A DNA stretch of 64,000 bases. It comes from a bacterium. GTDB lineage: Bacteria; 4484-113; JAFGCY01. Below the pieces are notes generated by a model, which saw only the letters and a list, made by a program, of their open reading frames with translations, searched no databases and was not told the origin of the DNA. How positions within the stretch are numbered: position 1 is the stretch's first letter; the number at the start of each line of letters is the position of its first letter. The translations under genes and the position numbers were made by a program. The stretch lies in NCBI GenBank assembly GCA_020440645.1, contig JAGRNR010000009.1, forward strand, positions 5,092 through 69,091. Direction: 5' to 3'. Of this stretch, positions 6,245-45,675 are shown in pieces.

Positions 6245-6247
6245 GCC

Positions 6248-8879: not shown

Positions 8880-8940
8880 GCGGCCATTATACAGTCGGTA
8901 TTTCTGGCAGCGCTGCTGCGGCAGGCCATACAATGTCAAC

Positions 8941-22784: not shown

Positions 22785-22785
22785 G

Positions 22786-23097: not shown

Positions 23098-23165
23098 GAC
23101 ACAAGTTCGAAAACTGCAGGTTATAGATACTGTTGAGTTGAACCCCCGAAGAGAGGGATTTTTAT

Positions 23166-25750: not shown

Positions 25751-27348
25751 AGCCGGCAGTCCAGCAGCAGCACGGTGATGTTGTCTGGCCCGCCGGCTGC
25801 ATTGGCGGCGTCCACCAGCGCCTGGGCCGTGACAGCCAGGCTGGCCTGCGCATTGGCGGCCAGCACGGCGGCGATCTCAGAGTCGCGCAGCGCATCACTC
25901 AGCCCGTCACTGCAGATGAGCAGGCGTTCGCAGGGGCCGGGGCGGAAGCTGTAGACATCGGCCTGGATCTCCAGCCCGTCGCCACCGAGGCAGCGAGTGA
26001 TCACGTTCTTGCGCGGATGGTCGAAGGCCTCATCCTCGCTCACGCTGCCGTTGTCAACCAGCTCCTGCACGAAGCTGTGGTCACGGGTGATGCGCTTCAG
26101 CGACTGCGCCGTGACCAGGTAGCAGCGGCTGTCCCCGACATTGAACACCGCCGAGCTGGCGGTCGTGTCACTGCTGAGCGTGCTGCCGGAGCCGAGCATC
26201 ACGAAGCCGCACAAGGTGGTGCCCATCCCGGCCAGCGCGGCATCGATCGCCGAGCGCTCGATCAGGGCACGGTTGATGCCGGGGATGATCGTGGCCAGCT
26301 GCATTGGCAGCACGCCGGTGTCCTGCGTCCTGGTGCTGGGTGCCGTCAGCGCGGCCTGCAGCTGCTGGCGCAGCATGGCCAGCGCAAGCGAACTGGCGAT
26401 CTCCCCGCTTTCATGACCCCCCATCCCGTCGGCCACGGCGGCGATGCTCAGCGAACTGCCGATTGCACTGTGCTGGCGCATGTCCAGCATCAGCCAGGCG
26501 TCTTCATTGTGCTGGCGCCGCATGCCGTTGTCAGTGGTGGCATGGCCCTCGAGCCTGATCCGGTGCAGGCAGCGCTGGATCTCGCTTGCCAGCATGCCGA
26601 GGCTCAGGCCAGCATTATTCTGCAGGCCGTCCAGCAGCCTGTCCAGTTCAGTCGCGATGTTTGCGGCGGGCAGCAGTTTCGGTGCCGCCAGCAGGCTGTC
26701 AACGAGCGGCCTGAGCAGGGTGACGATCTCCGAGGCGTCCGTCGGCTCTCCGGGCTGCAGTTCGCCAAAGCCCGTGAAGCGCAGTTGCCAGCCTGCCGGA
26801 GCGGTGTCCAGCCTGCGGCAGAAGCCCAGCGCATCCGCATTCAGCCGCCAGCCAAGTCCGCCGGCCTCGCAGCGCGCGAAACCTGTCGCCAGGTCATGCA
26901 TTGCATTCAGGATGTCAAGTACGCGCACGCGCAGCTGGCCGGACTCGATGCCCGCGGAGAATTCGCGGAAGCCCAGGTCCACCGGCTCGAGCGCGGCACT
27001 GAGTACAGCCGTGTCGTCAGCCAGCAGGTCACGCAGGCCGAACATTGCACCGCCCTCCAGCAGGATGCCGGGCAGTGCGTCAGCGACTGCACCGCCCTGC
27101 TCCAGCACCAGCTTGAGGAATCCGTCGGCAGCGTCCCCGGTTCCGATGCTGACGCGCTCCAGGCGCATGCCGTCCCAGCGCTGGATGGTCTCGCTCTCCT
27201 CGCGGTAGCTTGCGACATTGATCAGCGGGTCCGTCGGGTCGTCATCGGCAGGCATGGACGGAGCGGCAGCCGCGGCATCATGTGCAGCGGCCTGCTGGGC
27301 CGGCTCCTCATCTTCCCTGCGCCTGAACGGGTTCCACGACATCTGCAT
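25747..27348 (-). CDS. PP2C-family Ser/Thr protein phosphatase with an N-terminal domain of unknown function (about 280 aa)
   Basis: C-terminal PP2C motifs RRQHNEDAW, VADGMGGHESGEIAS, NVGDSRCY, CSDGLSD and GGPDNITV. Tail-to-tail 4-nt overlap with the NHL gene. Confidence 0.75.
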   Translation of the reverse strand: MQMSWNPFRRREDEEPAQQAAAHDAAAAAPSMPADDDPTDPLINVASYREESETIQRWDGMRLERVSIGTGDAADGFLKLVLEQGGAVADALPGILLEGGAMFGLRDLLADDTAVLSAALEPVDLGFREFSAGIESGQLRVRVLDILNAMHDLATGFARCEAGGLGWRLNADALGFCRRLDTAPAGWQLRFTGFGELQPGEPTDASEIVTLLRPLVDSLLAAPKLLPAANIATELDRLLDGLQNNAGLSLGMLASEIQRCLHRIRLEGHATTDNGMRRQHNEDAWLMLDMRQHSAIGSSLSIAAVADGMGGHESGEIASSLALAMLRQQLQAALTAPSTRTQDTGVLPMQLATIIPGINRALIERSAIDAALAGMGTTLCGFVMLGSGSTLSSDTTASSAVFNVGDSRCYLVTAQSLKRITRDHSFVQELVDNGSVSEDEAFDHPRKNVITRCLGGDGLEIQADVYSFRPGPCERLLICSDGLSDALRDSEIAAVLAANAQASLAVTAQALVDAANAAGGPDNITVLLLDCRL

Positions 27349-27395: not shown

Positions 27396-28061
27396 GTGCC
27401 CCTATATTACTTGACAGTGCTGGCGCTCGCCGGGTTCCTGAGTGGATCCCTGCCCTTCGGCTGGCTTGTGGCGCGGCTCGGGGGCATGGACATCCGCAAG
27501 CATGGCAGCGGCAACATCGGCATGACCAATGTCTGGCGCGTGATGGGCTGGAAAGCGGGCCTGACTGTGCTGCTGCTGGACGTGGCCAAGGGCCTGCTGC
27601 CCGTGCTGCTGGCCGGGCGCCTGATGGACACCGTCAACCCACCGGGGCTGACGATCAGTGGCCGCGCCTGGCTGCTGCTGATCACCGGGCTGGCCGCGAT
27701 CCTCGGGCATACATTCACGCCCTGGCTGAAGTTCAGGGGCGGCAAGGGTGTCGCCACCAGCCTCGGTGTGCTGATCGCGCTCTACCAGTTATGGGTGTTG
27801 GCGCCGCTTGGCGTATTCCTGCTGGCGCTGGCAATCACGCGCATGGTGAGTGTCGGCAGCATCCTCGCCGCACTGAGTGTGGGCATCCTTGCGGTGGCCG
27901 TGCCGGCACTCAGGCCCTACATGGCGTTTGGCATCCCAGTGGCTCTGCTCGTGATCTGGACGCACCGCAGCAACATCCGCCGCATCCTCGACGGCACGGA
28001 AAGCCGCGTCGGCAGCGGGAAGAAAAAGCCCGCAGCGGAGTCAACCCAGGCGGATCAGTAG
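27396..28061 (+). CDS. plsY: Glycerol-3-phosphate acyltransferase PlsY
   Basis: Motifs SLPFGWLVARL, HGSGNIGMTNVWRV and GGKGVATSLGV. About 220 aa with multiple TM helices. Confidence 0.85.
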   Translation: MPLYYLTVLALAGFLSGSLPFGWLVARLGGMDIRKHGSGNIGMTNVWRVMGWKAGLTVLLLDVAKGLLPVLLAGRLMDTVNPPGLTISGRAWLLLITGLAAILGHTFTPWLKFRGGKGVATSLGVLIALYQLWVLAPLGVFLLALAITRMVSVGSILAALSVGILAVAVPALRPYMAFGIPVALLVIWTHRSNIRRILDGTESRVGSGKKKPAAESTQADQ

Positions 28062-29755
28062 ATCCCGGCGGAGTGGATCGAATCCAGCATTGCCGAATAG
28101 CCCGCTGACATATGCATCAGCCAGTTCGGATAGATGCCGAGGAAGATGATCGCAGCGCCGAGTGGCAACAGCACGATGGCCTCACGCAGCGGCACACGGC
28201 CCTTCGCCGACTCCGGTGCATCCCCCGGCAGCGTGCGCTGCAGCAGGCTGATCATGTACACCGCGCTCGTCAGCACGCCGATCACCGCCAGGGCCGAGAG
28301 GATCTGCAAAAGCAGGCTGCCGTCGATGCTGCCAACCAGCACCGTCTGCCAGCCCGGCCCGTTCTCGAACGCGCCCATTAAGCTGTACAGCTCGCCCCAG
28401 AAGCCGGCCAGCGCCGGGAAGCCCATGCCGGCGAAGGCCGCCAGCGAAAGCATGCCCGCCAGGAGCGGGGCCGCGCTGCCCAGCCCAGCGATCTCATGCA
28501 CGTTGCGTGTGCCGTAGCGCCGCTCGATGCTGTCCGCCAGCAGGAACAGCGTGGTGATGATCACGCCGTGGCCCACCATGTGGTAGATCGCGCCGGTCGT
28601 TGCCAGCGGGTTCATTGCGCTGCAGCCGAGGATGATGAAGCCCATGTGGCTGATCGAGCTGTAGGCGATCATGCGCTTGATGTCGGTCTGTACCAGCGTG
28701 ACAGCCGCGCCCCAGACGATGCCGATCACCGCCAGCGTGGCAACCACCGGGCCGATCGCGTAACCCTGGTCCGGCAGCGCCCAGTACAGCACGCGCAGGA
28801 ATGCGTATGTCCCGCTCTTGAGCATCACCGCCGCGAGGATCACCGACATTTCCGCCGGGGCCTGGGTATGGGCCGGCGGCAGCCAGGTGTGCAGCGGGAA
28901 CAGCGGTGCCTTGACGGCGAAGGCCACGAGGAAGCCGAGGAAGATCCACATCCTCAGCCAGGGCACGACATCCGTATAGCCCTCGTTCAGCAGGAAGGTT
29001 GCCAGGTTCGGGATCTGGAAGCTGTAAACGCCGGCGCTGATCACCTTGCAGATGATGAGCGACATCAGCATGAACACCGAGCCGGCCATGGTGTACACGA
29101 AGAAGCGGATCGCGGCGCGCGCCGCCTTCTCGCGGTCCTTGCCCCAGCCGCCGATCAGCACGTACATCGGGATCAGCATCCATTCCCAGAACAGGTAGAG
29201 CAGCACGAAGTCCAGCGCCACGAAGGAGCCGATCAGGCCGACCTGCATGAACAGGGTCAGCGCGAGGAATTCCTTCACCCGCTCCGTGCGGTACCAGCCC
29301 CAGATGATGATCAGTGGCAACAGCGCACAGGTCATCAGCACCAGTGGCAATGACAGGCCGTCGATGCCGACGTCGTAGTGCACGCTGAAGCTGCGGCTCT
29401 CGCCGATCTTGATCGCCATCCATTCGATGTCCTGGCGGTACTGGAAGCCCGGGAACTCCGCCTGGAAGGGCGTGTACTGCCCGAGCGGCTTCAGGTCCTG
29501 CACGTTCTGCGAAGTGTCCGTGTATCCGGCGTAGGGCCGCCAGCTGGTTGCACTTTCGGGCAGCCCGGTCAGCAGCAGCACCGCAAACAGCAGGCTGAGC
29601 AGCGAGAACACCAGGGCCACGATCTTGATTGGCAGGATCTTCTTCTTCGGGATCAGGCAGACCAGCAGGCAGCCGACCAGCGGGGCCAGCATCATCTGGG
29701 TGATGGGGTTGCTGATCCACGAGATGAAGCCTATGAAACTCTGCGTCTGGTCCAA
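28055..29755 (-). CDS. nuoM: Complex I antiporter-like subunit of the NuoM/NuoN family (only one copy present in the operon)
   Basis: 566 aa. Motifs WEWMLIPMYVLIGGWGKDREKAARAAIRFFVYTMAGSVFML and PLHTWLPPAHTQAPAEMSVILAAVMLKSGTYAFLR, typical of NuoL/M/N and MrpD-type subunits. Directly follows nuoL. Confidence 0.8.
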   Translation of the reverse strand: MDQTQSFIGFISWISNPITQMMLAPLVGCLLVCLIPKKKILPIKIVALVFSLLSLLFAVLLLTGLPESATSWRPYAGYTDTSQNVQDLKPLGQYTPFQAEFPGFQYRQDIEWMAIKIGESRSFSVHYDVGIDGLSLPLVLMTCALLPLIIIWGWYRTERVKEFLALTLFMQVGLIGSFVALDFVLLYLFWEWMLIPMYVLIGGWGKDREKAARAAIRFFVYTMAGSVFMLMSLIICKVISAGVYSFQIPNLATFLLNEGYTDVVPWLRMWIFLGFLVAFAVKAPLFPLHTWLPPAHTQAPAEMSVILAAVMLKSGTYAFLRVLYWALPDQGYAIGPVVATLAVIGIVWGAAVTLVQTDIKRMIAYSSISHMGFIILGCSAMNPLATTGAIYHMVGHGVIITTLFLLADSIERRYGTRNVHEIAGLGSAAPLLAGMLSLAAFAGMGFPALAGFWGELYSLMGAFENGPGWQTVLVGSIDGSLLLQILSALAVIGVLTSAVYMISLLQRTLPGDAPESAKGRVPLREAIVLLPLGAAIIFLGIYPNWLMHMSAGYSAMLDSIHSAGIY

Positions 29756-31918
29756 CTACTCGTACCTCCCGAGGAAGCTCTGAATGATGCGCCGCAGTGT
29801 CTCGTTGAGCGGGAAGGAGACGACAATGCACATCAGCACGGCACCCAACAGCAGCACGAACATGTAGTTCTGGATCTGCCCGTTCTGCCAGTAGCGGCCG
29901 TGCAGCCGCTTGATGATCCACCAGATCTCGCAGCACCACCAGCGGATGCCGTCGACGAAGTGCAGGTCAAGCCAGGCACTGGCATTGGCCAGCCCACGGC
30001 CGCCGCGCCCGATGCGCGTTGACAGCCAGTCGATCAGGCGGATGTCTGAAATGCCTGCAAGAATTGCGAGGAACTCGCCGAAGCCGCCCACCAGTCCCGT
30101 GAAGAAGGGCTTCAAGTACAGCCCCTCGCGGAAGAATCCGGTCACGCCTGTCAAGAGCGGGGTCGGGCTGGCCAGCCCGCGCTCCGAGGCGGAGACGAAT
30201 CCAAGCACTGCGCCGGCCAGCACCAGCACGACCGAGAGGCCGGCGGCCAGTGGTTCGAAGTTGCCTGCCCATTGCAGGTCGTGCAGCCGGCCCTCGAAAT
30301 AGGCGCGGTAGGATGGCCAGAAGGCGGCGATGCCGATGCTGCCGATGAGCGCCAGCAGGATGGAAATCACAGTCGGTCCGGCCCAGCCATTGCCTGCGGA
30401 CGCTTGCTCCGCCAGGCCATTGGCAGCCTCCTTGCCGGGGGAAGGCATCAGCCCGCTCAGCAGGCGCGCACAGTAGGCTGCGGTAAAGGGAATCGATGCG
30501 ATCAGCAGCAGCGCTCCGGCCTGCCAGTAACCCGGCATGGCGGGCATTGTGCTTGCCAGTGCGTTGCCACCGTAGTCCTGTCCGGCGCGGGACAGCAGCG
30601 CGGAGAGGATCTGGTCCTTGCCGAAGTAGCCCGCCAGCCCGATCACACCGGCCAGGCTCAGGCCGGCCGGCAGCAGGGCCAGCCAGAACAGCTGTCCGCT
30701 GGCGGGGGACTGCCTAAGGTCGTCAAAACTCGGTTCGTCGTCATTATGTGTTGCCTGGGCCTCATGCCAGCGCGCCACCACAATGCCGACCGCAAGGAAC
30801 AGCGCGGCCTTGAACCAGGCATGTGCCAGCAGCTGGAATCGCGCGGCCTCCATCGCCAGCGCCCCGCTGCCCATCACGCACAGCCCAAGCTGGCTGACCG
30901 TGCTCCAGGCCAGCAGCTTCTTCGGCTGCTGCTGGCAACAGGCCACGATCGAGCCCATGAGCATCGTCAGGCCGCCGAGCATCACCGCCCAGGCCAGCGG
31001 GGCCACGTACCAGCCGGGGTTGCCACTGTCCGCCTGCACCGGCACGACAGTTCGCCCGAACAGCAGGTCACTGGCCAACAGCGGCCCGGCCGCCACCAGA
31101 GTTGCACTGTGCAGCAGGGCACTGACCGGGGCCGGGGCCACCATCGCATCCGGCAGCCAGAATGACAGCGGCAGGAGTGCTGCCTTGCCGAGCACGGCCA
31201 GCAGGACTAATAGTCCGGCCACGATCATCCAGTTCACGGCGGACAGCTGGTCCGGTACATGCTGTGCCACCCAGCCGATGCTGACCTGGCTGAGCTGCAC
31301 CATGTGCACACCGAAGCGGCCGAAGCCGAACATGAAGATGAAGATCGCGAACAGCAGCCCGAAGTCCGTGGCGCGCGTCGTCCAGAAGGCCTGGCGCGCT
31401 GCCCGGTTGGCCTCCGGCGTGCCCTTGTGGCGGATCAGCAGGTAGCCGGCGAGGCCCATCATTTCCCAGGCGATGTACAGCAGGATCAAAGTGTCACTGA
31501 CGAGGAACAGCAGCATTGAGCCGCAGAAGAATGTCAGCAGCGCATGGAATTGCGCGGCCTTCGGGTCAGCGCGCCGCTCGCGGATTGCATACAGCAACAC
31601 CGCCACGCCGATCAGGCAGGTTGTCAGGATGAACAGCACCTGCGTGTAGTCCGCGCGCAGGGCCAGCGGGATCGGCGGGAAGGCGCGGATCTCCGTGGTG
31701 TAGCCGCTGATCCAGTTGACCATCCATACCGCGCGGCCGGTCTCGGCATCCAGTCCCGCATTGACGGCGAGCGCCATCCCGGCACTGGCCACAAGCGACA
31801 GCACGCCGAGCAGGGCCGTGACGACGGCCGGCACACGGCGCATGAGCAGGCCCGCCCCCGCCGCCAGCAGCGGCAGAAGCGCGATCAGCGGCAGCAGTCC
31901 CTGCATCTCAGGCACCAC
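29756..31918 (-). CDS. nuoL: Complex I subunit NuoL-like (MrpA-type antiporter-like subunit, 720 aa)
   Basis: Motifs LLYIAWEMMGLAGYLLIRH, LPDAMVAPAPVSALLHSATLVAAG and a long C-terminal extension. Confidence 0.85.
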   Translation of the reverse strand: MVPEMQGLLPLIALLPLLAAGAGLLMRRVPAVVTALLGVLSLVASAGMALAVNAGLDAETGRAVWMVNWISGYTTEIRAFPPIPLALRADYTQVLFILTTCLIGVAVLLYAIRERRADPKAAQFHALLTFFCGSMLLFLVSDTLILLYIAWEMMGLAGYLLIRHKGTPEANRAARQAFWTTRATDFGLLFAIFIFMFGFGRFGVHMVQLSQVSIGWVAQHVPDQLSAVNWMIVAGLLVLLAVLGKAALLPLSFWLPDAMVAPAPVSALLHSATLVAAGPLLASDLLFGRTVVPVQADSGNPGWYVAPLAWAVMLGGLTMLMGSIVACCQQQPKKLLAWSTVSQLGLCVMGSGALAMEAARFQLLAHAWFKAALFLAVGIVVARWHEAQATHNDDEPSFDDLRQSPASGQLFWLALLPAGLSLAGVIGLAGYFGKDQILSALLSRAGQDYGGNALASTMPAMPGYWQAGALLLIASIPFTAAYCARLLSGLMPSPGKEAANGLAEQASAGNGWAGPTVISILLALIGSIGIAAFWPSYRAYFEGRLHDLQWAGNFEPLAAGLSVVLVLAGAVLGFVSASERGLASPTPLLTGVTGFFREGLYLKPFFTGLVGGFGEFLAILAGISDIRLIDWLSTRIGRGGRGLANASAWLDLHFVDGIRWWCCEIWWIIKRLHGRYWQNGQIQNYMFVLLLGAVLMCIVVSFPLNETLRRIIQSFLGRYE

Positions 31919-31953
31919 CCACCTCCTGCTGTGTCGTCGTCATCTGCAAGTCG

Positions 31954-32439
31954 TCAATCCTTCATCAGGTTGGCATCATCAAGCATGATGCTCTTCTTCA
32001 TGCGGTAGAAGGCGATGATGATCGCCAGCCCGACCGCAGCCTCAGCCGCAGCAACGATGATCACGAATATCGAGAACACCTGGCCCATGTTCGTCATCAC
32101 GGATTCCTCCGCGGTGAACGAGGCCAGGGTGGATTTCGGTCCGTAGTAGAAGTTGAACGCGCTCATGTTGATGTTGACGGCGTTGAGCATCAGCTCCAGC
32201 GCCAGCAGCATCCCGATCGCATTGCGCCGCGCGATCACGCCGTACAGCCCGAGGCAGAAGATGAACGCGCTGAGCACGAAGTACTGGTGGTAGTCCACGT
32301 TGGTGAACCACACCATCGGCGTGTCGCCACTTGAGGCGAACCACTGGCGCGAGGCGAACTCGATCGCCTGGATGATCGGCGCCAGGCCCTCGCTCGCCAG
32401 CGAGCCACCCTCGGACTGTTGCAGCAGCAGCAGTAACAT
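31954..32439 (-). CDS. nuoK: Complex I subunit NuoK, with a possible N-terminal extension of about 40 aa
   Basis: ORF 31954..32652. The internal ATG at 32437-32439 overlaps the nuoJ stop (ATGA coupling). NuoK core: YFVLSAFIFCLGLYGVIARRNAIGMLLALELMLNAVNINM ... AEAAVGLAIIIAFYR. Confidence 0.75.
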   Translation of the reverse strand: MLLLLLQQSEGGSLASEGLAPIIQAIEFASRQWFASSGDTPMVWFTNVDYHQYFVLSAFIFCLGLYGVIARRNAIGMLLALELMLNAVNINMSAFNFYYGPKSTLASFTAEESVMTNMGQVFSIFVIIVAAAEAAVGLAIIIAFYRMKKSIMLDDANLMKD

Positions 32440-33485
32440 CAGTCCTTCCTCACCAGGATGATCGCGCCGAGCATCGCCATGAGCAGGAGCACGCTGGCCA
32501 CTTCGAAGGGAAGTGTGTACGTTGCCATCAGCGACCAGCCGATGGCCTGGGTATTGCTTGTCAGTACTGCCGCACTGGGCGGGAACTCGGTGTTCTGCGG
32601 GAACTGCATGAACATCCCGACGAGCGCCATGAAGCCGAACAGCATCGTGCACAAAAGCGCGGCCCAGGGGCTCAGGTCAGTGTTCTGCCTGAGCTCGGTG
32701 CCGATGATGTTCTGGCTGACCATGATGCCGAACAGGAACAGCACCATGATGCCGCCGATGTAGATGATCACCTGCACCATCGCGAGGAACTCAGCGTTGA
32801 GCAGGATGAAGTAGCCGGCCACGCCGAACAGCGAAAGGATCAGCATCAGCGCGGAGTGGAACACGTTGCGCATCGTTACGCAACCGATGCCGCCGCCGAC
32901 CACGCCCGCCGTGAACAGCCAGAAGAAGAAGTTCAGCAGCCTGAGCGCGGGCACGCTGAGTGCCAGCATGCCCCAGAAGAAGGCGATGAAGCCAACGACT
33001 GTGAGGATTGCCAGCAGGCGCCGGTGGTCATGGAAGCGGTGCAGCGAAAGCTGCACGCAGGCGATCGTGCCGCCGACCAGCCCGAGGATCAGCATATTTG
33101 AAAGGTTGACAACCAGCGGCTGGAACAGCAGGGAGCTGATCACGAACACCGCCAGGCCAGCGCTGGCTGCCACCCGCAGCAGTCCGGCCTCCGCCGGCAG
33201 GCGGTTGAACAGCATCAGGTTCAGCAGGTAGAAGCCGGCGAGCATGCTGGCGCCCACCAGGATGCGTGCGTCCAGCTGCAAGGCCGCGGACCAGTCCAGT
33301 TTTCCACCCAGCGCTGCCAGCGGGGCGGCCAGCAGCGCCACAAGCACCGCGATCCCGGCCGTTGCCAGCAGCTGGCGGAAGATGCCGTCCAGCCGGTTGA
33401 CGAGCAGTCCGGCGGCCGCCAGCAACGCGGCCAGCAGGGCCACATTGCGCAGCAGCATAAGGGCGGCGGGCAGGCTGGTTTCCAT
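32439..33485 (-). CDS. nuoJ: Complex I subunit NuoJ with an N-terminal multi-TM extension of about 190 aa
   Basis: The C-terminal half matches NuoJ (FHSALMLILSLFGVAGYFILLNAEFLAMVQVIIYIGGIMVLFLFGIMV ... EVASVLLLMAMLGAIIL). The N-terminal half is additional hydrophobic helices. Confidence 0.75.
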   Translation of the reverse strand: METSLPAALMLLRNVALLAALLAAAGLLVNRLDGIFRQLLATAGIAVLVALLAAPLAALGGKLDWSAALQLDARILVGASMLAGFYLLNLMLFNRLPAEAGLLRVAASAGLAVFVISSLLFQPLVVNLSNMLILGLVGGTIACVQLSLHRFHDHRRLLAILTVVGFIAFFWGMLALSVPALRLLNFFFWLFTAGVVGGGIGCVTMRNVFHSALMLILSLFGVAGYFILLNAEFLAMVQVIIYIGGIMVLFLFGIMVSQNIIGTELRQNTDLSPWAALLCTMLFGFMALVGMFMQFPQNTEFPPSAAVLTSNTQAIGWSLMATYTLPFEVASVLLLMAMLGAIILVRKD

Positions 33486-34480
33486 CAGGAACTCACCTCC
33501 CCGCGTGGCCGCCTGAGCGGCAGCACCAGCGCCTCGCGATTGGCAACCGGCATCGCCCAGCGCTCCTCGAACACGACGAGCGGGGTGCCGTCCGCGCGCT
33601 TCAGTTCGCCCAGCGCGGGATCATGGTCATAGCGTCCGAGGTCAACGAACAGCACCGTCGGCTGCCCGGGGGCCTGCGCGATTGCACCGCTGCCATCGGC
33701 GGCGATGATGCGCAGCGCTTCCTCCTCAGTCAGTGAGTCGACATTCAAGAGCGGCACGCCGCGGTAGGCCGCCGGCAGCTTCGGCCGGCTGCGCGGATAG
33801 TCCTCGGTGAAGGGCTCGCTCGAAGCCATCCGGGCGGTCTCGCGGAAGCCGGTCAGCACGGAGGTGCCGTAGCGGTGCACGCGGTTGCTGAAGAACCAGA
33901 ATTGGCTGAAGCCGGTTGCAAGGTAGCTCAGGTTGAGCACGAACACCAGGAACCAGAACAGCGCCCAGAGCATGAAGTAGCCGAGCTGGAACTTGAACAC
34001 GGGGAGGCTGCCGGTCTCGCGCCAGATGGCGAAGCCCTCGCCGCTGAGCAGAAGCGTCAGGTTCGGCGTGTCGGCAATGCCCTTCACGCTCATCTTCGGG
34101 TGGATGCGGTCCAGCGGGTCGAATTCCACGATGAAGAAGAACAGGATGATCACGAACAGCAGCAGACGCCAGAGCGTGAAGTCGCGCACCATCCAGCGGC
34201 TGTACTTCACAAGCGCGCCGGATGCCCACCAGAAGAAGCCGAGAATCGCCGGCAGGGCCAGCAGCAGGCCGCTAGCAGTGAACCACATCAGAGAGTACTG
34301 CTCGGAGGGCTGCTTGGAGGCATAGTCGTCAAACAGCGCGCCGTATTTCGTGTAGACGAACACCAACGTGAACCAGGACACGGCGATGAAGCCATAGAAC
34401 TTGAACCAGTCCATCGCGGTGTAGCCGAACCAGCGCTTCGGCAGCGGATGGTGGATTGTCAGGTCATGCCCGTCAGGCAT
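33485..34480 (-). CDS. Hypothetical membrane protein embedded in the nuo-like operon (about 331 aa: 4-5 TM plus a C-terminal soluble domain)
   Basis: ORF 33485..34561. Likely start MPDGHD. Its stop overlaps the nuoJ start (ATGA). No Cys motifs and no match to any known complex I subunit. Confidence 0.55.
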   Translation of the reverse strand: MPDGHDLTIHHPLPKRWFGYTAMDWFKFYGFIAVSWFTLVFVYTKYGALFDDYASKQPSEQYSLMWFTASGLLLALPAILGFFWWASGALVKYSRWMVRDFTLWRLLLFVIILFFFIVEFDPLDRIHPKMSVKGIADTPNLTLLLSGEGFAIWRETGSLPVFKFQLGYFMLWALFWFLVFVLNLSYLATGFSQFWFFSNRVHRYGTSVLTGFRETARMASSEPFTEDYPRSRPKLPAAYRGVPLLNVDSLTEEEALRIIAADGSGAIAQAPGQPTVLFVDLGRYDHDPALGELKRADGTPLVVFEERWAMPVANREALVLPLRRPRGEVSS

Positions 34481-34943
34481 GCTGCACCTCCTCCACCGTT
34501 TCCGGCTCGTTGGCAGCACTGCCGCCCGCTCCTGCTGCGGCGATGTTGCGCAGCTGGGCATGGTGCCCGGGCGCCGTCACCACGAACCAGTAGAGGAAGC
34601 CGGGCAGCAACAGCAGCACCGGCCGCAGTGTGAACTGCAGTTCGTACTGCAGCCACAGCGAATACAGGCAGCCGCAGGCCGCGAAGCTCCACAGCAGGGA
34701 AGCGATGCCGGGCCGCCGCCTGAACCAGGGGTTGATCCAGGCCGCATTGCGCGCCGGCGTCAGCGGCAGCACCGCCAGCAGCAGGCCGATTGCCAGCAGG
34801 GCCAGCGGGCCGAACCACTGCGTTGTCAGCACGGGTGCCACTCCAAGCACGATGCGCAGGTACAGGCCCCAGGCCCCGGCGGCCACGAGCAGCAGCTCTC
34901 CGAGGAGATGCAGCAGGTTCTGGCTGGTTGACAGCATCCTCAT
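34473..34943 (-). CDS. Hypothetical membrane protein embedded in the nuo-like operon (about 156 aa, 3-4 TM)
   Basis: ORF 34473..35042. Likely start MRMLSTSQNLL immediately after the nuoH stop. Overlaps the downstream gene by about 8 nt. Confidence 0.5.
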   Translation of the reverse strand: MRMLSTSQNLLHLLGELLLVAAGAWGLYLRIVLGVAPVLTTQWFGPLALLAIGLLLAVLPLTPARNAAWINPWFRRRPGIASLLWSFAACGCLYSLWLQYELQFTLRPVLLLLPGFLYWFVVTAPGHHAQLRNIAAAGAGGSAANEPETVEEVQHA

Positions 34944-36715
34944 CCGGTCCAGCTCACCTCCCGGCGGGGCTGCGGATGTCGGCGCTGCACGAACAGGATG
35001 CGCCAGGCCATCAGGAGGATGAACAGGCCGAAGAACAGGCACAGCACGTTGTAGCCCCAGAAGAAGGCCTTCTCGGGGACTGTCATCACCGCCAGTGCTT
35101 CAGCTGTTGTCAGCGTCTGGTACTGGGTGACGCGCTGCAGGGCGGTCACGTCGACATCGGAGACGGCCAGCTGGTTCGCGCTGAACCAGGGATGGCGGTT
35201 GACGACGCCGAGCGCGGTGGCCGCCATCACGACCACGCTGGCCGGCAGCAGGAACTTCCAGGAGAAGAACATGATCTGGTCCACGCGGATGCGCGGCATC
35301 GTGGAGCGCGCCCATATGAAGAAGAAGCACACGGCGTAGGTCTTCAGCAGGAACCAGAACAGGCTCGTCAGCCACAATCCGTCGGGGCCGAGGAACATCG
35401 GGCCCTTCCAGCCGCCGAAGAAGCAGACGGTCATGATCGCGCTGACGATGAACACGTTGGAGTACTCGGCGACATAGAACAGCGCGAAGCGCATCCCGCT
35501 GTACTCCACCAGGTAGCCGCCCAAGAGCTCGTTCTGCGCTTCCGGCAGGTCAAAGGGCGGGCGGTTGGTCTCGGCAAGGCTGACAACGAGGTAGATGATG
35601 AAGGCCGGGAACAGCGGCAGGATGCCCCAGGTCATCGTCTGGCGCTGCACGATCTCCGTCAGGTTCAGCGAACCGGCAAAGATGGCAACGCACAGCAGGC
35701 TCATCAGCATCGGGATTTCGTAGGTCAGCAGCATCGCGGCCTCGCGCATCGCGCCGACCAGTGCATATTTGTTGTTGGAGGCGTAGCCGGACATGATCAC
35801 GGCCACGAGGAACATCGCAAAGTCGGCGATGATCAGGAGCAGGCCGACATTCAGGTCCTGGATCATGTAGTAGATGATCTGCCCGTCGACAGCCGCCACG
35901 CCGAACGGGATCACCACCCAGCTCAGGAGCGCCGGCAGGTAGACGAGGATCGGCGCGATCAGGTACAGCAGCTTGTCAGCGCTGAGCGGAACGGTGTCTT
36001 CCTTGAAGAAGATCTTGATCGTGTCGTAGAAGCCCTGGCGCCAGTAGTAGCGCAGCATGTAGCTCATGTAGAGCACGAAGGCGACCACGGTGCACAGCAC
36101 GGTGAGCTGCGGCAAAAACGGGATGTGCGCCTTCGGGATGAAGCCCAGCAGGAGAGCGACGAGCATGCCACCGCAGGACGCGAGGGATGGCCAGGCCAGC
36201 AGTGACAGCAGCGTTGCCAGGAAGCGCCAGACGGAGGTCTGCGCGGCCTGCATCCGGCCGAGCGCTGGCAGGATCATCAAGCGGTTGATCAGCCCCATCA
36301 TGCCCACGGCGAAGAACAGGATGATCCAGCCGCCGAACTGTTGCCAGCCGGCGGTGCCGCCGGTCCAGTAGTTGATGCCGTACAGCAGCGCGGGCAGGCC
36401 GATCAGCACGCCGATCTGCAGGAAGATCCGCCGGAAGCGCTGCGGGGTGACCTCGCCGTACTCCTGCGGGCCGCGGCGGCCCTGCATGCGCGCCATCAGG
36501 CGGCGTTCCCAGACCTGCAGGCCGATGGTGATCATCAGCTCCAGGAGGAAGATCAGCAGGAGCGCCGTCACCAACATGATGCCGTTGGCAACCTCCGGGC
36601 TGAAGCGCAGGCCGGGCAGCGGCTCGGTGTTGAGCCAGGCGCGCATCGCCTCCCAGACGGTGCGGGCCTCGTCCATGTCGTAGCGCTGCTGCAGGATTGC
36701 CAGCATCGGGAGCAT
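34940..36715 (-). CDS. nuoH: Complex I subunit NuoH with N- and C-terminal extensions (about 591 aa)
   Basis: ORF 34940..36793. The likely ATG overlaps the nuoD TGA stop by 1 nt (ATGA). NuoH core motifs: IKIFFKEDTVPLSADKLLYLIAPIL, ADFAMFLVAVIMSGYASNNKYALVGAMR and AETNRPPFDLPEAQNELLGGYLVEYSGMRFALFYVAEY. About 200 extra N-terminal residues (4-5 TM) and about 100 extra C-terminal residues. Confidence 0.8.
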   Translation of the reverse strand: MLPMLAILQQRYDMDEARTVWEAMRAWLNTEPLPGLRFSPEVANGIMLVTALLLIFLLELMITIGLQVWERRLMARMQGRRGPQEYGEVTPQRFRRIFLQIGVLIGLPALLYGINYWTGGTAGWQQFGGWIILFFAVGMMGLINRLMILPALGRMQAAQTSVWRFLATLLSLLAWPSLASCGGMLVALLLGFIPKAHIPFLPQLTVLCTVVAFVLYMSYMLRYYWRQGFYDTIKIFFKEDTVPLSADKLLYLIAPILVYLPALLSWVVIPFGVAAVDGQIIYYMIQDLNVGLLLIIADFAMFLVAVIMSGYASNNKYALVGAMREAAMLLTYEIPMLMSLLCVAIFAGSLNLTEIVQRQTMTWGILPLFPAFIIYLVVSLAETNRPPFDLPEAQNELLGGYLVEYSGMRFALFYVAEYSNVFIVSAIMTVCFFGGWKGPMFLGPDGLWLTSLFWFLLKTYAVCFFFIWARSTMPRIRVDQIMFFSWKFLLPASVVVMAATALGVVNRHPWFSANQLAVSDVDVTALQRVTQYQTLTTAEALAVMTVPEKAFFWGYNVLCLFFGLFILLMAWRILFVQRRHPQPRREVSWTG

Positions 36716-37866
36716 CACTTGTCGACCTCCCCGATCATGATGTCGAGGCTGCCGTAGATCACGAACAGGTCCGCCAGCAGGTAGCCGCGGCACAGCTCGT
36801 CCAGCAGGAACAGGTGGTACAGGCTCGGCGCACGCAGGTGCATGCGGCTCGGGCGGTTGCTGCCGTCGCTGACGAGTGTCAGGCCGAGCTCGCCGCGCGG
36901 GCTCTCGACCGCCGTGTAGACCTCGCCGCGTGAGACCTGCATCGCAGCGAAGTCTGGGCTGACATCCGCCGCCCGCAGCTCGCCGTTGTCAATGTAAGCC
37001 AGGCAGTGCTCAATGATGCGCAGGCTCTCGCGCATCTCGACGAAGCGCACGCGGTAGCGGTCCAGCACATCGCCATACTCGCCGGTCGGCACATGCAGCT
37101 CCAGCTCGCCGTACATCGCATAGGGCTGGTCGCGGCGCAGGTCATGCGCGATCCCGCTGCCGCGCAGCACGGGCCCGGTGGCACCGTGCTCGAAGGCGAA
37201 CTCGGGCTCGAGCGTGCCGATCAGCTCGCTGCGGTTGACCCAGATCGCGTTGTCAGAGAAGAAGTCCTCGTATTCATCCAGCCGGCCCTGGAACCACAGG
37301 CAGAATGCCCGCACATGGCCGCTGAAGTCCTCCGGCGGGGCAGTGCGCACGCCGCCGGGCACGATCCAGCCGTGGTGGTGGCGGTGCCCGCTGAGCATCT
37401 CCAGCAGGTCGAGCAGCATCTCGCGCTCGCGCAGCGAGATGAAGATCGGGGTGTAGGCGCCGGCCTCCAGGCCGAGGTTGCCAAACCAGAACAGGTGGTT
37501 GCCGATCCGGCTCAGCTCCAGCACAAGGGTGCGCAGCCACTGCGCACGGGCCGGAACCGTGATCCCCTCGATGCGCTCGATGGCGTCCGCCACCAGCCAG
37601 TCCGCATTGCTGCCGGCCAGCCACTCGCAGCGGGACAACAGCCCCGCCGCCTGGGCGTAGTTGCGCTGGGTCACCAGCTGCTCCACGCCGCGGTGCATGA
37701 AGCCGACCTCCGGCGTGATGCGCTCGATCAGCTCGCCGTCCGCCTGTACCCGCAGTTCCAGCGGGCTCGGCAGGCTCGGATGCTGCGGGCCGACGGAGTA
37801 GACCAGCTTCTCGGTCAGCAGCGGGTCGCGGCGGATCTCGACACGGCGATCAGAGCTGCGCGTCAT
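36715..37866 (-). CDS. nuoD: Complex I 49-kDa subunit NuoD-like (no [NiFe] cysteine motifs)
   Basis: Motifs VGPQHPS, EVGFMHRGVEQL, RIGNHLFWFG and C-terminal SLDIMIGEVDK. ATG at 37866 (the track starts at the TTG three nt upstream). Overlaps nuoC by about 20 nt. Confidence 0.85.
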   Translation of the reverse strand: MTRSSDRRVEIRRDPLLTEKLVYSVGPQHPSLPSPLELRVQADGELIERITPEVGFMHRGVEQLVTQRNYAQAAGLLSRCEWLAGSNADWLVADAIERIEGITVPARAQWLRTLVLELSRIGNHLFWFGNLGLEAGAYTPIFISLREREMLLDLLEMLSGHRHHHGWIVPGGVRTAPPEDFSGHVRAFCLWFQGRLDEYEDFFSDNAIWVNRSELIGTLEPEFAFEHGATGPVLRGSGIAHDLRRDQPYAMYGELELHVPTGEYGDVLDRYRVRFVEMRESLRIIEHCLAYIDNGELRAADVSPDFAAMQVSRGEVYTAVESPRGELGLTLVSDGSNRPSRMHLRAPSLYHLFLLDELCRGYLLADLFVIYGSLDIMIGEVDK

Positions 37867-38434
37867 CAAGCACCTCCCGCATCGCCGCGTCCGCGCGCTG
37901 TTTCAGCACGTTTTCAGCGTAGTTCTCATGTGAGGCAGCCCTGAACTCCCGCCTGAGCGGGAAGCCCTGCAGCTGCGGGTCGAGGATCAGGCCAATGAGG
38001 TTAGGGTTGCCGGCGAAGGGGATGCCGAAGAACTCGAAGATCTCGCGCTCCATCAGCTCCGTGGCCCGCCAGATCAGGCTCAGGCTGGGGTGCACGCTCT
38101 GCCCGGCATAGGCCGGCGCGGCCTCGCTGTCCTCCCCGCCCGGATCCGTTGCCGGGGGATTGCCCTCCAGCAGGGTGAATTTCCATTTCAGTGTGAGGCT
38201 GACGTCATGCCGCCTGCCGTGCCTGAGCGTCAGGTAGAGGTGGAAGTCCGGCCCGCCGAGGTGGTTGGCGGTCATGTTCAGCGCACGGATGAAGCCGATG
38301 TTCTTCAGCTGGCGGCAGACCAGCGGCAGCTGGCCGCTGTCCGTCAGGATCGCCCAGCCGCGGGCGGGGTCCAGCAGCAGCACATCACCGCAGTCCTCAC
38401 GGATCTGACCGGCAAGCTCATCAGGGAGCACCAA
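37850..38434 (-). CDS. nuoC: Complex I 30-kDa subunit NuoC
   Basis: NuoC signature SLSLIWRATELMEREIFEFFGIPFAGNPNLIGLIL. First gene of the operon, downstream of an AT-rich spacer. Confidence 0.85.
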   Translation of the reverse strand: MVLPDELAGQIREDCGDVLLLDPARGWAILTDSGQLPLVCRQLKNIGFIRALNMTANHLGGPDFHLYLTLRHGRRHDVSLTLKWKFTLLEGNPPATDPGGEDSEAAPAYAGQSVHPSLSLIWRATELMEREIFEFFGIPFAGNPNLIGLILDPQLQGFPLRREFRAASHENYAENVLKQRADAAMREVLDDAQL

Positions 38435-38749
38435 GTCCTCCCCATCCTGGCTGGATTACGGCAATCGGCATACAGGTATAAACGATCAAAAGCCCCACAG
38501 CGTTACCTTATACATACAAAATGCAAAGGCTTTTGTAATTCTAGCCGATGGGGCAGCGCTGATCACCGCCTGCAGGCAATTGGTTGAAGGGCGTGTGGGT
38601 CTGCCAGCCCAATTGTTAACAGCGGGAAAATCAAAGTAAAGTCCCGATTCAATTAGTTGATTCATTATCTTGCGAGCCTGGATAATTTCTATAATTCAAA
38701 TCGTCAGACCCAGTCTGTACCGGTTGAATTCAAGATTCCAGGTCAAGGC
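38435..38749. promoter_or_regulatory. AT-rich divergent promoter region between nuoC (minus strand) and the small-membrane-protein/histidine-kinase pair (plus strand)
   Basis: AT-rich sequence with TATAAT-like hexamers (ggataatttctataattcaaatcg; caattgttaacagcgggaaaatcaaagtaaag), in contrast to the flanking GC-rich coding sequence. Confidence 0.4.
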
Positions 38750-39025
38750 ATGCCACAGCAGCATGAATTAATTACTGCAATCCTCGGACTTGGCGTGTTG
38801 TTGCTGATGATCGTGCAACGCCGCCAGCTGCGGCTCATCCCTGACTACCGCTGGCTGTTCCTCTCCTACTGCCTGATCCTGCTGGCCTGGCTGCTGACCA
38901 TTGCGGAAGATTACTGGCTGCCGGTCTACATGAACCTGCTGGAGCATATCTGTTACCTGGCCAGCGCAGCGCTGGTCGCCTGGTGGACACAGAAGTTCCT
39001 CAGAAGGGAAGCGCCACAGCAATGA
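38750..39025 (+). CDS. Small hypothetical membrane protein (about 91 aa) translationally coupled to the histidine kinase gene
   Basis: ORF 38657..39025. Likely start MPQQHELITAILGLGVLLLM. Its TGA stop overlaps the kinase ATG (ATGA). Confidence 0.45.
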   Translation: MPQQHELITAILGLGVLLLMIVQRRQLRLIPDYRWLFLSYCLILLAWLLTIAEDYWLPVYMNLLEHICYLASAALVAWWTQKFLRREAPQQ

Positions 39026-40836
39026 GCATGCTGCTGACGGTGTTTGACCTGCTGAGCCTGCTGGCCGTGCTGTCTGCACTGTGGCTGGCGGCAGCCAGGC
39101 GGATTGCCGGCCTGCGGCGTGACTACCTGTGGTGCCTGATCATCCTGCTGGTGGTGCTGGGTCTCAACTTCCTCAGCAACCTGCTGGACAACAGCGGGCT
39201 GAGCCCCTGGCTGGAGCGCTTCGAGGACTACCCCGGACTGCTGCAGCCGGTGTTCTGGGGCATCCTCCTGATGAGCCTGGTGCAGGACCGCGCCCTGCGC
39301 CGCACCGAGCTCTCTGAACAGCGGCTGCGCGGCCTGCTGGACGCGATGCGTGACGGGGTTGCCACTATTGACCCGGGTGGCGTGTTCCGCTTTGCCAACC
39401 CGGCGGCCGCGGAAATCCTCGGGGTTGCCCACGGCAGCCTTAGCGGCCGCAGTCTGGACGAGTTCTGGCTGGCTACCGAATCGCATACTTGCCGGATGCT
39501 GCCACATTCCCCGGGCCAGGATTACAGCGCCTACGAATGCGGCATCCGCCATGGCAGCGGCGACAGCCTCGTGCTGCTGCTGCAGGTCTCGCCGATCCCG
39601 GGCCAGCCCCGCCAGCGCCTGCTGTTCATGCATGATGTGACCCCGCTGCGCCGGGCCGAGCACAGCCTGCAGCAGGCCCAGGCCCAGCTCGGACAGGCCC
39701 AGCGGCTGGAGGCGATCGGCACGCTGGCCAGCGGCATCGCCCATGACTTCAACAACATCCTGTTCGCGATTTCCGGCAACAGCCAGATCGCGCTGGATAC
39801 TGAGGGACTGACCGTCGATGCGCGGGAGAGCCTGCGCGAGATCGACACCGCCAGCCGCCGCGCCTCCGACCTGGTGGCGCAGATCCTCAACTTCAGCCGC
39901 AGCGAGAAGAGCCGGACACGGGACCTGTTGCCACTTCCGGTTGTCAAGGAAGTGCTGCGCCTGCTGCGCTCCACCGTGCCGCCGCAGGTCAGCATCCAGC
40001 TCAGCCATGACGAATCGACGTGCCGGATCCATGCCGACCCGACCGACCTGCACCAGCTGCTGATGAACCTCTGCACCAATGCGATCCAGGAGATGGCGGT
40101 GGAGGGCGGGACGCTGCGGGTCCGGTTGGAGTGCAGCAATCCACCGCCGACACTGGCCGAGCGGGGAATGCTGCAGCCTAAACCACACCTGATGCTCAAG
40201 GTCAGTGACACGGGGGGCGGTATTCCACCGGATGCGCTGCCGCACATCTTCGAGCCCTTCTTCACGACCAAGCCAAGCGGTGAGGGCACCGGTCTAGGGC
40301 TGTTCGTTGTCAGCGGGATCGTCAAGCGCCTGCAGGGACAGATCGAGATTGACAGCGAACCGGGCCATGGCAGCAGCTTCACGGTCTGGCTGCCGCTGTC
40401 CAGCGGGGCCGCTGATGCCGACGATGCCGGGCCGGGGCAGGCCACCGGCCGCGGCCGGGGCCGGCTGCTGGTGGTTGACGACGAGCCGGCGGTCAACCGG
40501 GTGCTGGCGCTGATGCTCGGCCAGCTCGGCTACAAGGTGACAACCTATAGCGACAGCTACCGCGCGCTCAGTGAGTTCCAGACCAACCCGGAGCAGTACG
40601 ACCTGCTGCTGTGCGACATCTCGATGCCGGGCCTGCGCGGCGATGAACTGGTGAAGCGGATACGCTCCGTTCGCCCAGGCCTGCCGGTGGTGCTGTGCTC
40701 CGGCAATCCGGATGTTCTGCCTCCGGGCAGTGCAACTGAACTGGGTGTGCATGCAGTGCTTAAGAAACCGGTTGACAAGCCACAGCTGGCGGATTGCATC
40801 GCCGAGGCACTTGGCAGTAACCGTGCACAGGCCTGA
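39022..40836 (+). CDS. Hybrid sensor histidine kinase (TM sensor, PAS, HisKA, HATPase_c and C-terminal receiver domains)
   Basis: ORF 38983..40836. H-box IGTLASGIAHDFNNIL. HATPase G-boxes DTGGGIP and GEGTGLGL. REC domain LLVVDDEPAVNRVL ... DLLLCDISMPG ... K. PAS-like segment before the H-box. Confidence 0.8.
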   Translation: MSMLLTVFDLLSLLAVLSALWLAAARRIAGLRRDYLWCLIILLVVLGLNFLSNLLDNSGLSPWLERFEDYPGLLQPVFWGILLMSLVQDRALRRTELSEQRLRGLLDAMRDGVATIDPGGVFRFANPAAAEILGVAHGSLSGRSLDEFWLATESHTCRMLPHSPGQDYSAYECGIRHGSGDSLVLLLQVSPIPGQPRQRLLFMHDVTPLRRAEHSLQQAQAQLGQAQRLEAIGTLASGIAHDFNNILFAISGNSQIALDTEGLTVDARESLREIDTASRRASDLVAQILNFSRSEKSRTRDLLPLPVVKEVLRLLRSTVPPQVSIQLSHDESTCRIHADPTDLHQLLMNLCTNAIQEMAVEGGTLRVRLECSNPPPTLAERGMLQPKPHLMLKVSDTGGGIPPDALPHIFEPFFTTKPSGEGTGLGLFVVSGIVKRLQGQIEIDSEPGHGSSFTVWLPLSSGAADADDAGPGQATGRGRGRLLVVDDEPAVNRVLALMLGQLGYKVTTYSDSYRALSEFQTNPEQYDLLLCDISMPGLRGDELVKRIRSVRPGLPVVLCSGNPDVLPPGSATELGVHAVLKKPVDKPQLADCIAEALGSNRAQA

Positions 40837-45553: not shown

Positions 45554-45600
45554 CTTTATTCCTCACTGCGCCCGGATACTCTCCAGCAAGCTGGAGGGGC

Positions 45601-45618: not shown

Positions 45619-45675
45619 AAAGAATCACCAAACTGAGCTTCGCGGCAAGCAGGTCCCAGCTACCCCTGGCACGGT

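Follow-up and report, generated by a model that had tools for sequence, protein, structure and literature searches.

A nuo operon with cofactor-less NuoB and NuoI in an uncultured bacterial lineage: a candidate complex I descendant kept for ion translocation

The central open problem of complex I is the coupling, over more than 150 Å, by which its quinone chemistry drives the pumping of protons. The locus described here puts this problem in a different form: what is left for a complex I to do when the ligands of its cofactors are gone and the residues of its ion path are kept? The locus lies on contig JAGRNR010000009.1, within a stretch of 64,000 nucleotides (nt) that was analysed as a whole and is called the window below, and it is a minus-strand nuo operon that carries a lineage-specific gene, X, and a gene Y that is identified below as nuoI. 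The identity and the architecture assigned to the encoded complex are very probably right. The best explanation overall, to which we give roughly an even chance, is that it is a descendant of complex I that has lost all of its redox chemistry and retained its ion-translocating machinery.

Nine closely spaced genes, nuoC-D-H-X-Y-J-K-L-M, occupy positions 38434..28055 of the minus strand, and their G+C content at third codon positions (GC3), which serves as a marker of the true reading frame in this genome of 63% GC, is 0.85-0.93. In the window's clade, nuoA and nuoB' are found 4 kb upstream of nuoC on the same strand, and the full set in this operon amounts to 11 genes, nuoA-B'-C-D'-H-X-I'-J-K-L-M. 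They are listed with their lengths in amino acids (aa) and the expect (E) values or bit scores of their family matches:

43400..43002, minus strand: nuoA, 132 aa; Pfam Oxidored_q4 (1e-27) and an NCBIfam NuoA match
43011..42559, minus strand: nuoB', 150 aa; Pfam Oxidored_q6 (2e-19), above the NCBIfam NuoB subfamily cut-offs
38434..37850, minus strand: nuoC, 194 aa; Pfam Complex1_30kDa (1e-15) and NCBIfam NuoC_fam
37869..36715, minus strand: nuoD', 383-384 aa; Pfam Complex1_49kDa (2e-80) and NCBIfam NuoD NF004739 (386 bits, cut-off 360)
36715..34940, minus strand: nuoH, 591 aa; Pfam NADHdh (3e-97), in two stretches
34943..34473, minus strand: X, 156 aa; no Pfam match
34480..33485, minus strand: Y, or nuoI', 331 aa; no Pfam match
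33485..32439, minus strand: nuoJ, 348 aa; Pfam Oxidored_q3 (4e-38) at residues 199-344
32439..31954, minus strand: nuoK, 161 aa; Pfam Oxidored_q2 (4e-25)
31918..29756, minus strand: nuoL, 720 aa, with a C-terminal lateral helix region; NCBIfam NuoL NF005141 at residues 8-699
29755..28055, minus strand: nuoM, 566 aa; NCBIfam NDH_I_M (450 bits, cut-off 264)

Relatives were gathered by a scan of species-representative genomes and by contig look-ups, which gave nine loci (L001-L009) from an uncultured lineage labelled UBP7, in which the 11-gene set recurs whole or in part. The identity of Y ranges from 44 to 97% across these nine UBP7-type loci, with the 97% match to the window found in the complete genome CP060262.1 ('HK-STAS-UBP7_A-1', L004), and the order nuoA-B-C-D-H-X-Y-J-K-L-M is contiguous in L001, L006 and L007. 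The sister lineage came to light when 1.84 billion representative proteins were searched with NuoB', which returned one other NuoB without cysteines (P0065, pattern EDGS). It is encoded at locus L011, where Y is ~25% identical and the operon, with subunit lengths in brackets, is as follows:

9606-19314 of ENA ERZ27262642 k141_265788: nuoA-B'(EDGS)-C-D'-H(493)-I'(354)-J(172)-K(127)-L-M, without X

The loss of cofactor ligands can be seen in NuoB'. Each subunit was aligned with its E. coli counterpart and with that of L011, and the numbers of single residues in this paragraph and the next are those of E. coli. NuoB' contains no Cys; the ligands of the N2 cluster are replaced in all UBP7-type loci (C63Y, C64A, C129G and C158D), the ligand regions read GLDYATLE, FGAGAISG and VPGDPPRPE, and the corresponding positions in L011 hold E/D/G/S. 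Among the 150 closest NuoB representatives, all four Cys are present in 146, one further protein is a fragment without the first two Cys positions, and replacement of any of them is restricted to this family, the L011 family and one eukaryotic match. P0063, a NuoB-like match with an LICC pattern, stems from a eukaryotic chromosome and was set aside as irrelevant. In NuoD', H224 (numbered as in E. coli NuoCD) is replaced by P, A, T or V and in L011 by W, while Y273 has become W, or I in L011; we take these two residues to be the equivalents of H38 and Y87 of T. thermophilus, the ligands of the quinone head group. Every member has thus lost the four NuoB Cys together with H224 and Y273 of NuoD, and the double Cys motifs of NuoI are missing too, except that L011 retains a CP and a CxxCxxC. 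A NiFe site or a new metal site in NuoD' was considered and rejected, as there are no hydrogenase Cys motifs and the Cys of 'SRCEW' is not invariant. NuoE, NuoF, NuoG and NuoN were found neither in the window nor in eleven related loci. The first-pass annotation of this DNA had described a complex that has lost its Fe-S (iron-sulfur) chain. The absence of Fe-S ligands is borne out by the complete lack of Cys in NuoB' and NuoI'; the subunits themselves are not lost, and NuoB and NuoI persist as cofactor-less shells.

The residues of the ion path are kept in the same alignments. Of 33 membrane-arm residues checked in NuoA, H, J, K, L and M, 29 are conserved in all UBP7-type loci, namely E36, R37, D63, E71, E157, R209, D213, E216, E220, E228 and R293 of NuoH; D79 of NuoA; Y59 and V65 of NuoJ; E36 and E72 of NuoK; E144, D178, K229, H254, H338, K342 and K399 of NuoL; and E144, K234, K265, H322, H348 and E407 of NuoM. 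The remaining four vary conservatively or in some loci only (NuoA E81 to D, NuoL D400 to D/E, NuoJ E80 to E/Q and NuoL H334 to H/Q). The complex consists of a cap without cofactors (B', C, D' and the soluble part of I'), an intact E-channel made of H, A, J and K, and the two antiporter-like modules M and L, likewise intact; about 15-19 helices have been added on H, I', J and X. When the families of Y and X and NuoD' were aligned, the added helices showed neither an invariant His nor an invariant Cys and no sign of another site for a prosthetic group, and heme ligation by the new helices was rejected on the ground that no His is invariant.

Another of these changes concerns Y. In the first-pass annotation, nuoH and nuoJ were separated by inserted genes for two membrane proteins of unknown kind, yet only one of them, X, is an insertion: the 331-aa protein is the orthologue of nuoI in its canonical place. 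It is built of two parts:

33896..34480, minus strand: N-terminal membrane domain of NuoI' (Y residues 1-195), with four transmembrane (TM) helices and a small loop sub-domain
33488..33895, minus strand: soluble domain of NuoI' (Y residues 196-331), a ferredoxin-like fold without cysteine

The membrane domain has the conserved motifs FWWAxGALVRYSRWQ, DPLDxIHP and FQWGYFLLW in an alignment of 28 members, and the soluble domain opens with the N-terminal signature of NuoI, GFRETxxxxxxPVTxxYPxxxxxLPxxYRGVPxL. A profile search of the PDB with Y alone found nothing better than NdhI at E=2, and the homology was for this reason established through NCBIfam, Foldseek and the sister lineage. Eleven of the 28 members scanned singly match NCBIfam NuoI models (five models, best E 5e-4), and hhalign of the soluble part against E. 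coli NuoI pairs residues 28-53 with residues 28-53 (E 0.0035). The AlphaFold (AF2) model of Y has a predicted local distance difference test (pLDDT) score of 82.5, and its top Foldseek matches in the PDB are 7z0s_F (HycF of formate hydrogenlyase, E 0.012), 7f9o_T (barley PSI-NDH supercomplex) and 6u8y_N (MBS complex); HycF and 6u8y_N are the NuoI-type subunits of their complexes. The bridge is provided by the Y' protein of L011, which hhalign matches to the Y family over 305 columns (probability 98.5%, E 2e-15), with the four-helix N-terminal domain present in both, and which in turn matches NuoI models at E 1.4e-8 and is retrieved by E. coli NuoI in a tblastn search. Because position (between nuoH and nuoJ, as for nuoI in E. 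coli), signature motif, NCBIfam models, fold matches and this bridge agree, Y is a NuoI that has gained four helices as a membrane anchor and whose ferredoxin domain is devoid of cluster ligands.

The cysteine motifs themselves illustrate the transition. In Y' of L011, '...AAAACPDGLIRVE...SRCYFCGLCVEAD...' preserves the CP from ferredoxin motif 1 as well as the CxxCxxC from motif 2, and at the same columns Y of the window reads 'IIAADGSGAIAQA...GRYDHDPALGELKRAD', with no Cys in the whole protein. Members of the Y family carry 0-3 Cys in the soluble domain, scattered, and none has the two CxxCxxCxxxCP motifs of NuoI. The family is a small one: a search of 5.8 billion clustered proteins gave only 43 relatives of Y, each from an unclassified, metagenome-assembled 'bacterium' genome, and Y is 329-345 aa long across the loci; only two proteins of the L011 Y type were found in the same collection.

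NuoH is remodelled at several points, which were placed by comparison with solved NuoH/ND1 chains and by alignment with E. coli NuoH and nine orthologues. It matches the solved chains in two stretches, TM1 ('VWERRLMARMQGRRGP', residues ~39-87) and the core at residues 227-502. The roughly 200-residue N-terminal extension proposed at first resolves, in this comparison, into ~45 conserved extra residues at the N-terminus and an insertion of ~138 aa in the TM1-TM2 loop, whereas the overall length of 591 aa and the presence of a C-terminal extension (~90 aa) were as first described. The two main additions are:

36038..36451, minus strand: NuoH TM1-TM2 loop insertion, residues 89-226, ~138 aa, with four hydrophobic helices judged by hydropathy peaks
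34943..35209, minus strand: NuoH C-terminal extension, residues 503-591, ~90 aa, with the motif NRHPWFxAN, an amphipathic stretch and one extra TM helix

The loop insertion is flanked by 'RRGPQEYG' and 'WRQGFYDTIKIFFKED' and comprises two TM helices in L005 and L007 and four in the other loci, while L011 has none. In canonical complex I, the TM1-TM2 loop forms part of the wall of the quinone cavity, where NuoH meets NuoB and NuoD. The C-terminal extension, with NRHPWFSAN in the window, is kept in all nine UBP7-type loci and in the sister locus L011, where it accompanies the membrane-anchored NuoI. Two short insertions of ~8 aa each complete the picture, and the length of NuoH varies between 505 and 651 aa across the loci.

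The other heel subunits are extended as well, so that remodelling around NuoH and NuoJ, as had been suspected, is confirmed by alignments across loci. The canonical core of NuoJ corresponds to residues ~191-348. Two extra N-terminal TM helices at residues ~126-190 are common to all UBP7-type loci, and a further ~120 residues with four TM helices are confined to the window's clade; NuoJ of L011 has no extension, and lengths across the loci are 227, 301-318 or 348 aa. The first description of NuoJ as a 348-aa protein with a long N-terminal extension is therefore right for the window, while as a lineage-wide feature the extension shrinks to ~45 aa. NuoK has a conserved N-terminal extension of ~50 aa (WFAxxGxxPMxFFTxVDYHQYF) and a 15-aa insertion in its TM2-TM3 loop (TRAxFTSEExVxTN), its length being 157-172 aa across the loci. 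Further along the membrane arm, nuoM is the second and last gene for an antiporter-like subunit, and E. coli NuoN matches solely the L and M genes in the window and in ten related loci. NuoL itself is 720 aa long in the window and 720-781 aa in relatives, compared with 613 aa in E. coli, even though its lateral helix has one antiporter-like subunit less to span, and D563 of the lateral helix is not conserved.

X is the sole true lineage-specific added protein of the two 'unknowns'. It contains four hydrophobic helices, its invariant residues include G15, E16, W25, P60, P63, W85, G91, P114 and W119, and its length is 145-166 aa across the loci. Scans of Pfam and NCBIfam gave no convincing family, and its relatives number 18 among 5.8 billion proteins, none with a Pfam domain. 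The AF2 model is of low confidence (pLDDT 61), and its Foldseek matches in the PDB are noise (E>2) with no DsbB among them. A relationship to DsbB was rejected, as the Pfam match is weak (best E 0.012, in three of six members) and the X family lacks a conserved Cys, whereas the four-helix bundle of DsbB depends on two essential pairs of periplasmic Cys. Remote homology searches thus settled the identity of the 331-aa protein as NuoI and left the 156-aa X without a related family. Stoichiometric co-assembly of X with the complex is plausible from its translational coupling; its rapid evolution and its absence from L008 and L011, together with the dissimilar four-helix open reading frame (ORF) at its site in L009, weaken the case for it. 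Y and the remodelled nuo genes recur in the nine loci.

Two possible origins for the added segments were also examined. Pairwise hhalign comparisons among X, the membrane domain of NuoI', the NuoH insertion and the NuoJ extension all gave probabilities <2%, and a single module inserted repeatedly was rejected. The same four segments are unrelated to E. coli NuoN, A, J and K by hhalign, and a remnant of NuoN was rejected likewise.

The junction between nuoH and nuoI' seems to be a hot spot of gene gain. In L008 the X site is occupied by a toxin-antitoxin-like pair of HepT (DUF86-like) and MNT nucleotidyltransferase genes (9376-10001), and L007 has an extra four-helix ORF in the nuoH/X interval (8700-9450). 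A conserved 178-aa ORF (VS(I/T)NRFDKYKNEVPTEAELAAPKFQ...) lies between nuoD and nuoH in L008 (6865-7401) and L009 (6960-7496).

The genes are tightly joined, as was established by reading the junctions base by base. The D/H junction is TGATG, in which the ATG of nuoH and the stop codon of nuoD have one base in common; nuoH and X overlap by ATGA; X and Y overlap by 8 nt, ATGCCTGA, with GGAGGAGG just before; the Y/J junction is again TGATG, with GGGGAGG just before; and at the third TGATG the start of nuoK overlaps the stop of nuoJ. Ribosome-binding sites are close to these start/stop overlaps. The gene coordinates, lengths and overlaps of the first-pass annotation proved correct in this reading, and the translational coupling that it deduced from the ATGA and 8-nt overlaps is borne out.

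Selection was estimated from the ratio of nonsynonymous to synonymous substitution rates (dN/dS) between the window and L002. The cores are strongly constrained, with values of 0.07 for the NuoH core, 0.09 for the NuoJ core, 0.12 for the NuoK core and 0.15 for NuoD, and the C-terminal extension of NuoH (0.16) and the shared NuoJ extension (0.19) follow closely. Values are higher in NuoI', at 0.28 for the soluble domain and 0.39 for the membrane domain, and highest in X (0.48), the NuoH insertion (0.53) and the clade-specific NuoJ extension (0.63). The newest helices thus behave like peripheral, fast-evolving accessory parts. Because the changes are conserved under purifying selection across the lineage, they point to a new function and not to decay, in agreement with what had been supposed from the window alone.

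The subunits are complex I proteins, and not hydrogenase or Ehr proteins, as far as their sequences allow them to be assigned. The best PDB matches of NuoH are complex I chains (~1e-62), followed at a distance by MBS (2e-17) and MBH (2e-12); NuoB', NuoD' and NuoM clear the curated NCBIfam cut-offs for Nuo proteins, and no hydrogenase large-subunit model does better than E 2.6e-4 with NuoD'. Orthologues of subunits A to D and H to M of respiratory complex I and of the 11-subunit complex I-like enzymes (Nuo/Nqo, NDH-1, Fpo) are encoded at this locus in the same gene order, and the E-channel and antiporter-subunit residues of complex I are intact here. NuoEFG are absent from the 11-subunit enzymes as well, but those lack the NADH module only. 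The complex described here differs further in having no Fe-S ligands in NuoB and NuoI and no quinone His/Tyr in NuoD, in lacking NuoN and hence possessing two antiporter-like subunits only, in the four-helix anchor of NuoI, in the extra subunit X, and in the loop insertion and C-terminal helix of NuoH and the extended NuoJ and NuoK. Its sequence speaks against quinone reduction with NADH or ferredoxin as the electron donor, coupled to ion pumping.

Mrp antiporters are homologous to the membrane arm of complex I. Like the complex proposed here, they are redox-independent, and their building blocks are NuoL/M-like (MrpA/D) and NuoK-like (MrpC) subunits. NuoK, NuoL and NuoM of the window are matched by NCBIfam Mrp models too and are closer to the Nuo models; homologues of MrpB, E, F and G were not detected, and X and Y have no Mrp family matches. 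Mrp has no NuoH, NuoA or peripheral cap, whereas NuoH, A, B', C, D' and I' are all present here, which places the locus outside the seven-subunit Mrp group. The MBH and MBS complexes and formate hydrogenlyase resemble it in having fewer antiporter-like subunits than complex I and a NuoI-like ferredoxin subunit; in contrast to it, they retain NiFe or Fe-S centres and are redox enzymes, and the similarity of NuoH to theirs is limited to E 1e-12 to 1e-17.

Loss of catalytic ligands in this superfamily has a precedent. Ehr complexes, relatives of the group 4 [NiFe] hydrogenases with Ech-like clusters (EhrA-D, L, S), belong to the complex I/group 4 hydrogenase superfamily, have lost the ligands of the catalytic NiFe metal and are presumed to translocate ions (PMC6349859, PMC10432482, PMC7894505). 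The complex described here is likewise a superfamily member without catalytic ligands, but its subunits score as Nuo and barely as hydrogenase, and NuoA, C, J and K are present in complex I order; Ehr was set apart by its published description and not by direct sequence comparison. In addition, in the deactive form of mammalian complex I the link between redox chemistry and the ion-transfer domain is broken, and this domain acts as a Na+/H+ antiporter (PMC3464577). There, uncoupling is a reversible state of a cofactor-loaded enzyme, whereas a permanent, genetic uncoupling is proposed here. A survey of Nuo in ~11,000 species classed genomes only as complete, complex I-like, incomplete or absent (PMC12361115), and the full-text literature searched, the coverage of which is incomplete, yielded no account of a nuo operon in which NuoB lacks Cys and NuoI is both Cys-free and anchored in the membrane.

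What such a complex could do may be considered from its architecture. NuoH, I, J and K sit at the heel of complex I, and the canonical quinone portal opens by TM1 of NuoH, directly before the insertion site found here. Because the additions all hang on heel subunits, the added helices probably form a collar around the former quinone entry and the E-channel, which might stabilise the cofactor-less cap and compensate for the missing contacts of NuoN. With no path for electrons, and with new segments that lack any invariant His or Cys, an ion gradient is the sole evident source of energy, and it would power the complex as a secondary transporter, with protons passing through NuoL and NuoM, a counter-ion through the heel of NuoH, A, J and K, and the B'/C/D'/I' cap serving as a lid. 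The putative function put forward on this basis, by analogy with Mrp, is that of a redox-independent cation/proton antiporter, and it is offered tentatively, as the most economical model. The broader proposition of a permanent, lineage-wide, cofactor-free ion-moving complex I, with an integral membrane NuoI, a heel rebuilt by new helices and the sister lineage as a half-way intermediate, falls only a little short of an even chance. L011 is an evolutionary intermediate, with motifs in its NuoI' that would suffice for one 4Fe-4S cluster.

Several observations weigh against a purely ion-moving complex. One of the NuoH loops through which quinone chemistry is coupled to pumping, the TM5-6 loop RPPFDLPEAxNEL, is nearly invariant, and the B'/C/D'/I' cap has been retained in full; a simple antiporter has no obvious need of either. 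These features suggest that the cavity is still active, for example in binding an ion or a ligand or in gating, which a ligand or a partner could drive. NuoI' of L011 still has the motifs for a possible 4Fe-4S cluster, and a second canonical nuo operon or a partner could exist elsewhere in these genomes. X and the NuoH insertion evolve fast (dN/dS ~0.5), X is dispensable in some lineages, and their role may be structural only. Lastly, the ion species and the direction of transport are pure inference.

Some of these observations lend themselves to an enzyme that is still driven by redox chemistry, in which electrons would be delivered by a cofactor or partner that has escaped recognition (for example flavin, heme or a protein that docks on the cap) and quinone would be reduced at a site remodelled by the NuoH insertion, X and the membrane domain of NuoI'. 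The high conservation of the quinone-cavity loops of NuoH, the replacement of Y273 in NuoD by an invariant aromatic Trp, the clustering of the remodelling around the former quinone entry and the possible cluster in L011 are all compatible with it. We nevertheless regard it as unlikely: NuoB' and NuoI' have no Cys and the added segments no invariant His or Cys, no locus has nuoE, F or G, the flanking genes differ between loci with no redox gene conserved beside the operon, and L011, even if it kept a cluster in NuoI', has no N2 cluster to relay electrons to quinone. Alternatively, the membrane module might pair with the Fe-S subunits of a second, canonical nuo operon in isoform or hybrid complexes, and two nuo sets do occur in some bacteria (PMC12361115). 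This is improbable, as the operon has its own full set of cap genes (B', C, D' and I'), tightly coupled and constrained (NuoD dN/dS 0.15), which would be pointless if substituted, and NuoD' itself lacks the quinone ligands.

A complete cap retained without catalysis would also suit a sensor or gated channel, in which the cap binds a metabolite or protein and the membrane arm transduces signals of the proton-motive force or of ions. In the window's clade, a gene for a PAS histidine-kinase/response-regulator hybrid even lies inside the operon; its insertion is clade-specific, being missing from L001, L006, L007 and L011, no ligand-binding domain was detected, and eleven subunits with two full antiporter modules would be costly for a sensor, so that we see little chance of this. 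That the operon is a decaying relic of complex I, its extensions no more than mis-called starts or junk ORFs, is effectively refuted. The catalytic residues are indeed gone, and X, the NuoH insertion and the clade-specific NuoJ extension do evolve at dN/dS 0.48-0.63, but the frames are intact with a GC3 of 0.85-0.93, the junctions are coupled and have ribosome-binding sites, the architecture is held in nine UBP7-type loci and L011 with extensions that align across loci, core dN/dS stays at 0.07-0.15, and 29 of 33 ion-path residues are conserved.

If the reading as a complex I descendant without redox chemistry is true, the operon offers a native system in which the ion translocation of complex I is separated from its redox chemistry. 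A natural version with the cap, the coupling loops, the E-channel and two pump modules, and without cofactors, would show which parts are kept for ion movement alone. The fate of NuoI is instructive in its own right, as a soluble two-cluster ferredoxin has become a Cys-free integral membrane protein, with one sister lineage half-way. A lineage-wide cofactor-free descendant of complex I is thus a more far-reaching finding than the two inserted novel proteins from which the analysis set out. There is also a practical side: NuoB', NuoD' and NuoM exceed the NCBIfam cut-offs and consequently receive automatic 'NADH-quinone oxidoreductase' labels, from which metabolic reconstructions may wrongly infer respiration by complex I.

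The surroundings of the operon are not respiratory. The break after nuoB' is limited to the window's clade, as A-B-C-D-H are contiguous in L001, L006, L007 and L011. In the window, the interval between nuoB' and nuoC is filled by four genes:

41742..42539, minus strand: an unknown Cys-rich ORF of 265 aa
40852..41250, plus strand: a TfoX_N-like protein
38983..40836, plus strand: the PAS-HisKA-HATPase-receiver hybrid kinase
38657..39025, plus strand: a membrane protein of 122 aa

At its 3' end the operon meets the convergent plsY (27396..28061, plus strand) in place of nuoN, and the 3' ends of nuoM and plsY overlap by 7 nt (28055-28061). One flank holds motA/motB-like stator genes and a gene for a FliL-domain protein (window 21025-24071), and the other holds four genes for large secreted PKD-domain proteins (window 43454-52914). 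Elsewhere in the window lie genes for a PP2C phosphatase (25747..27348), an MscS-type channel (7512..9119) and two MacB/FtsX-type permeases (5021..7495), again none of them respiratory.

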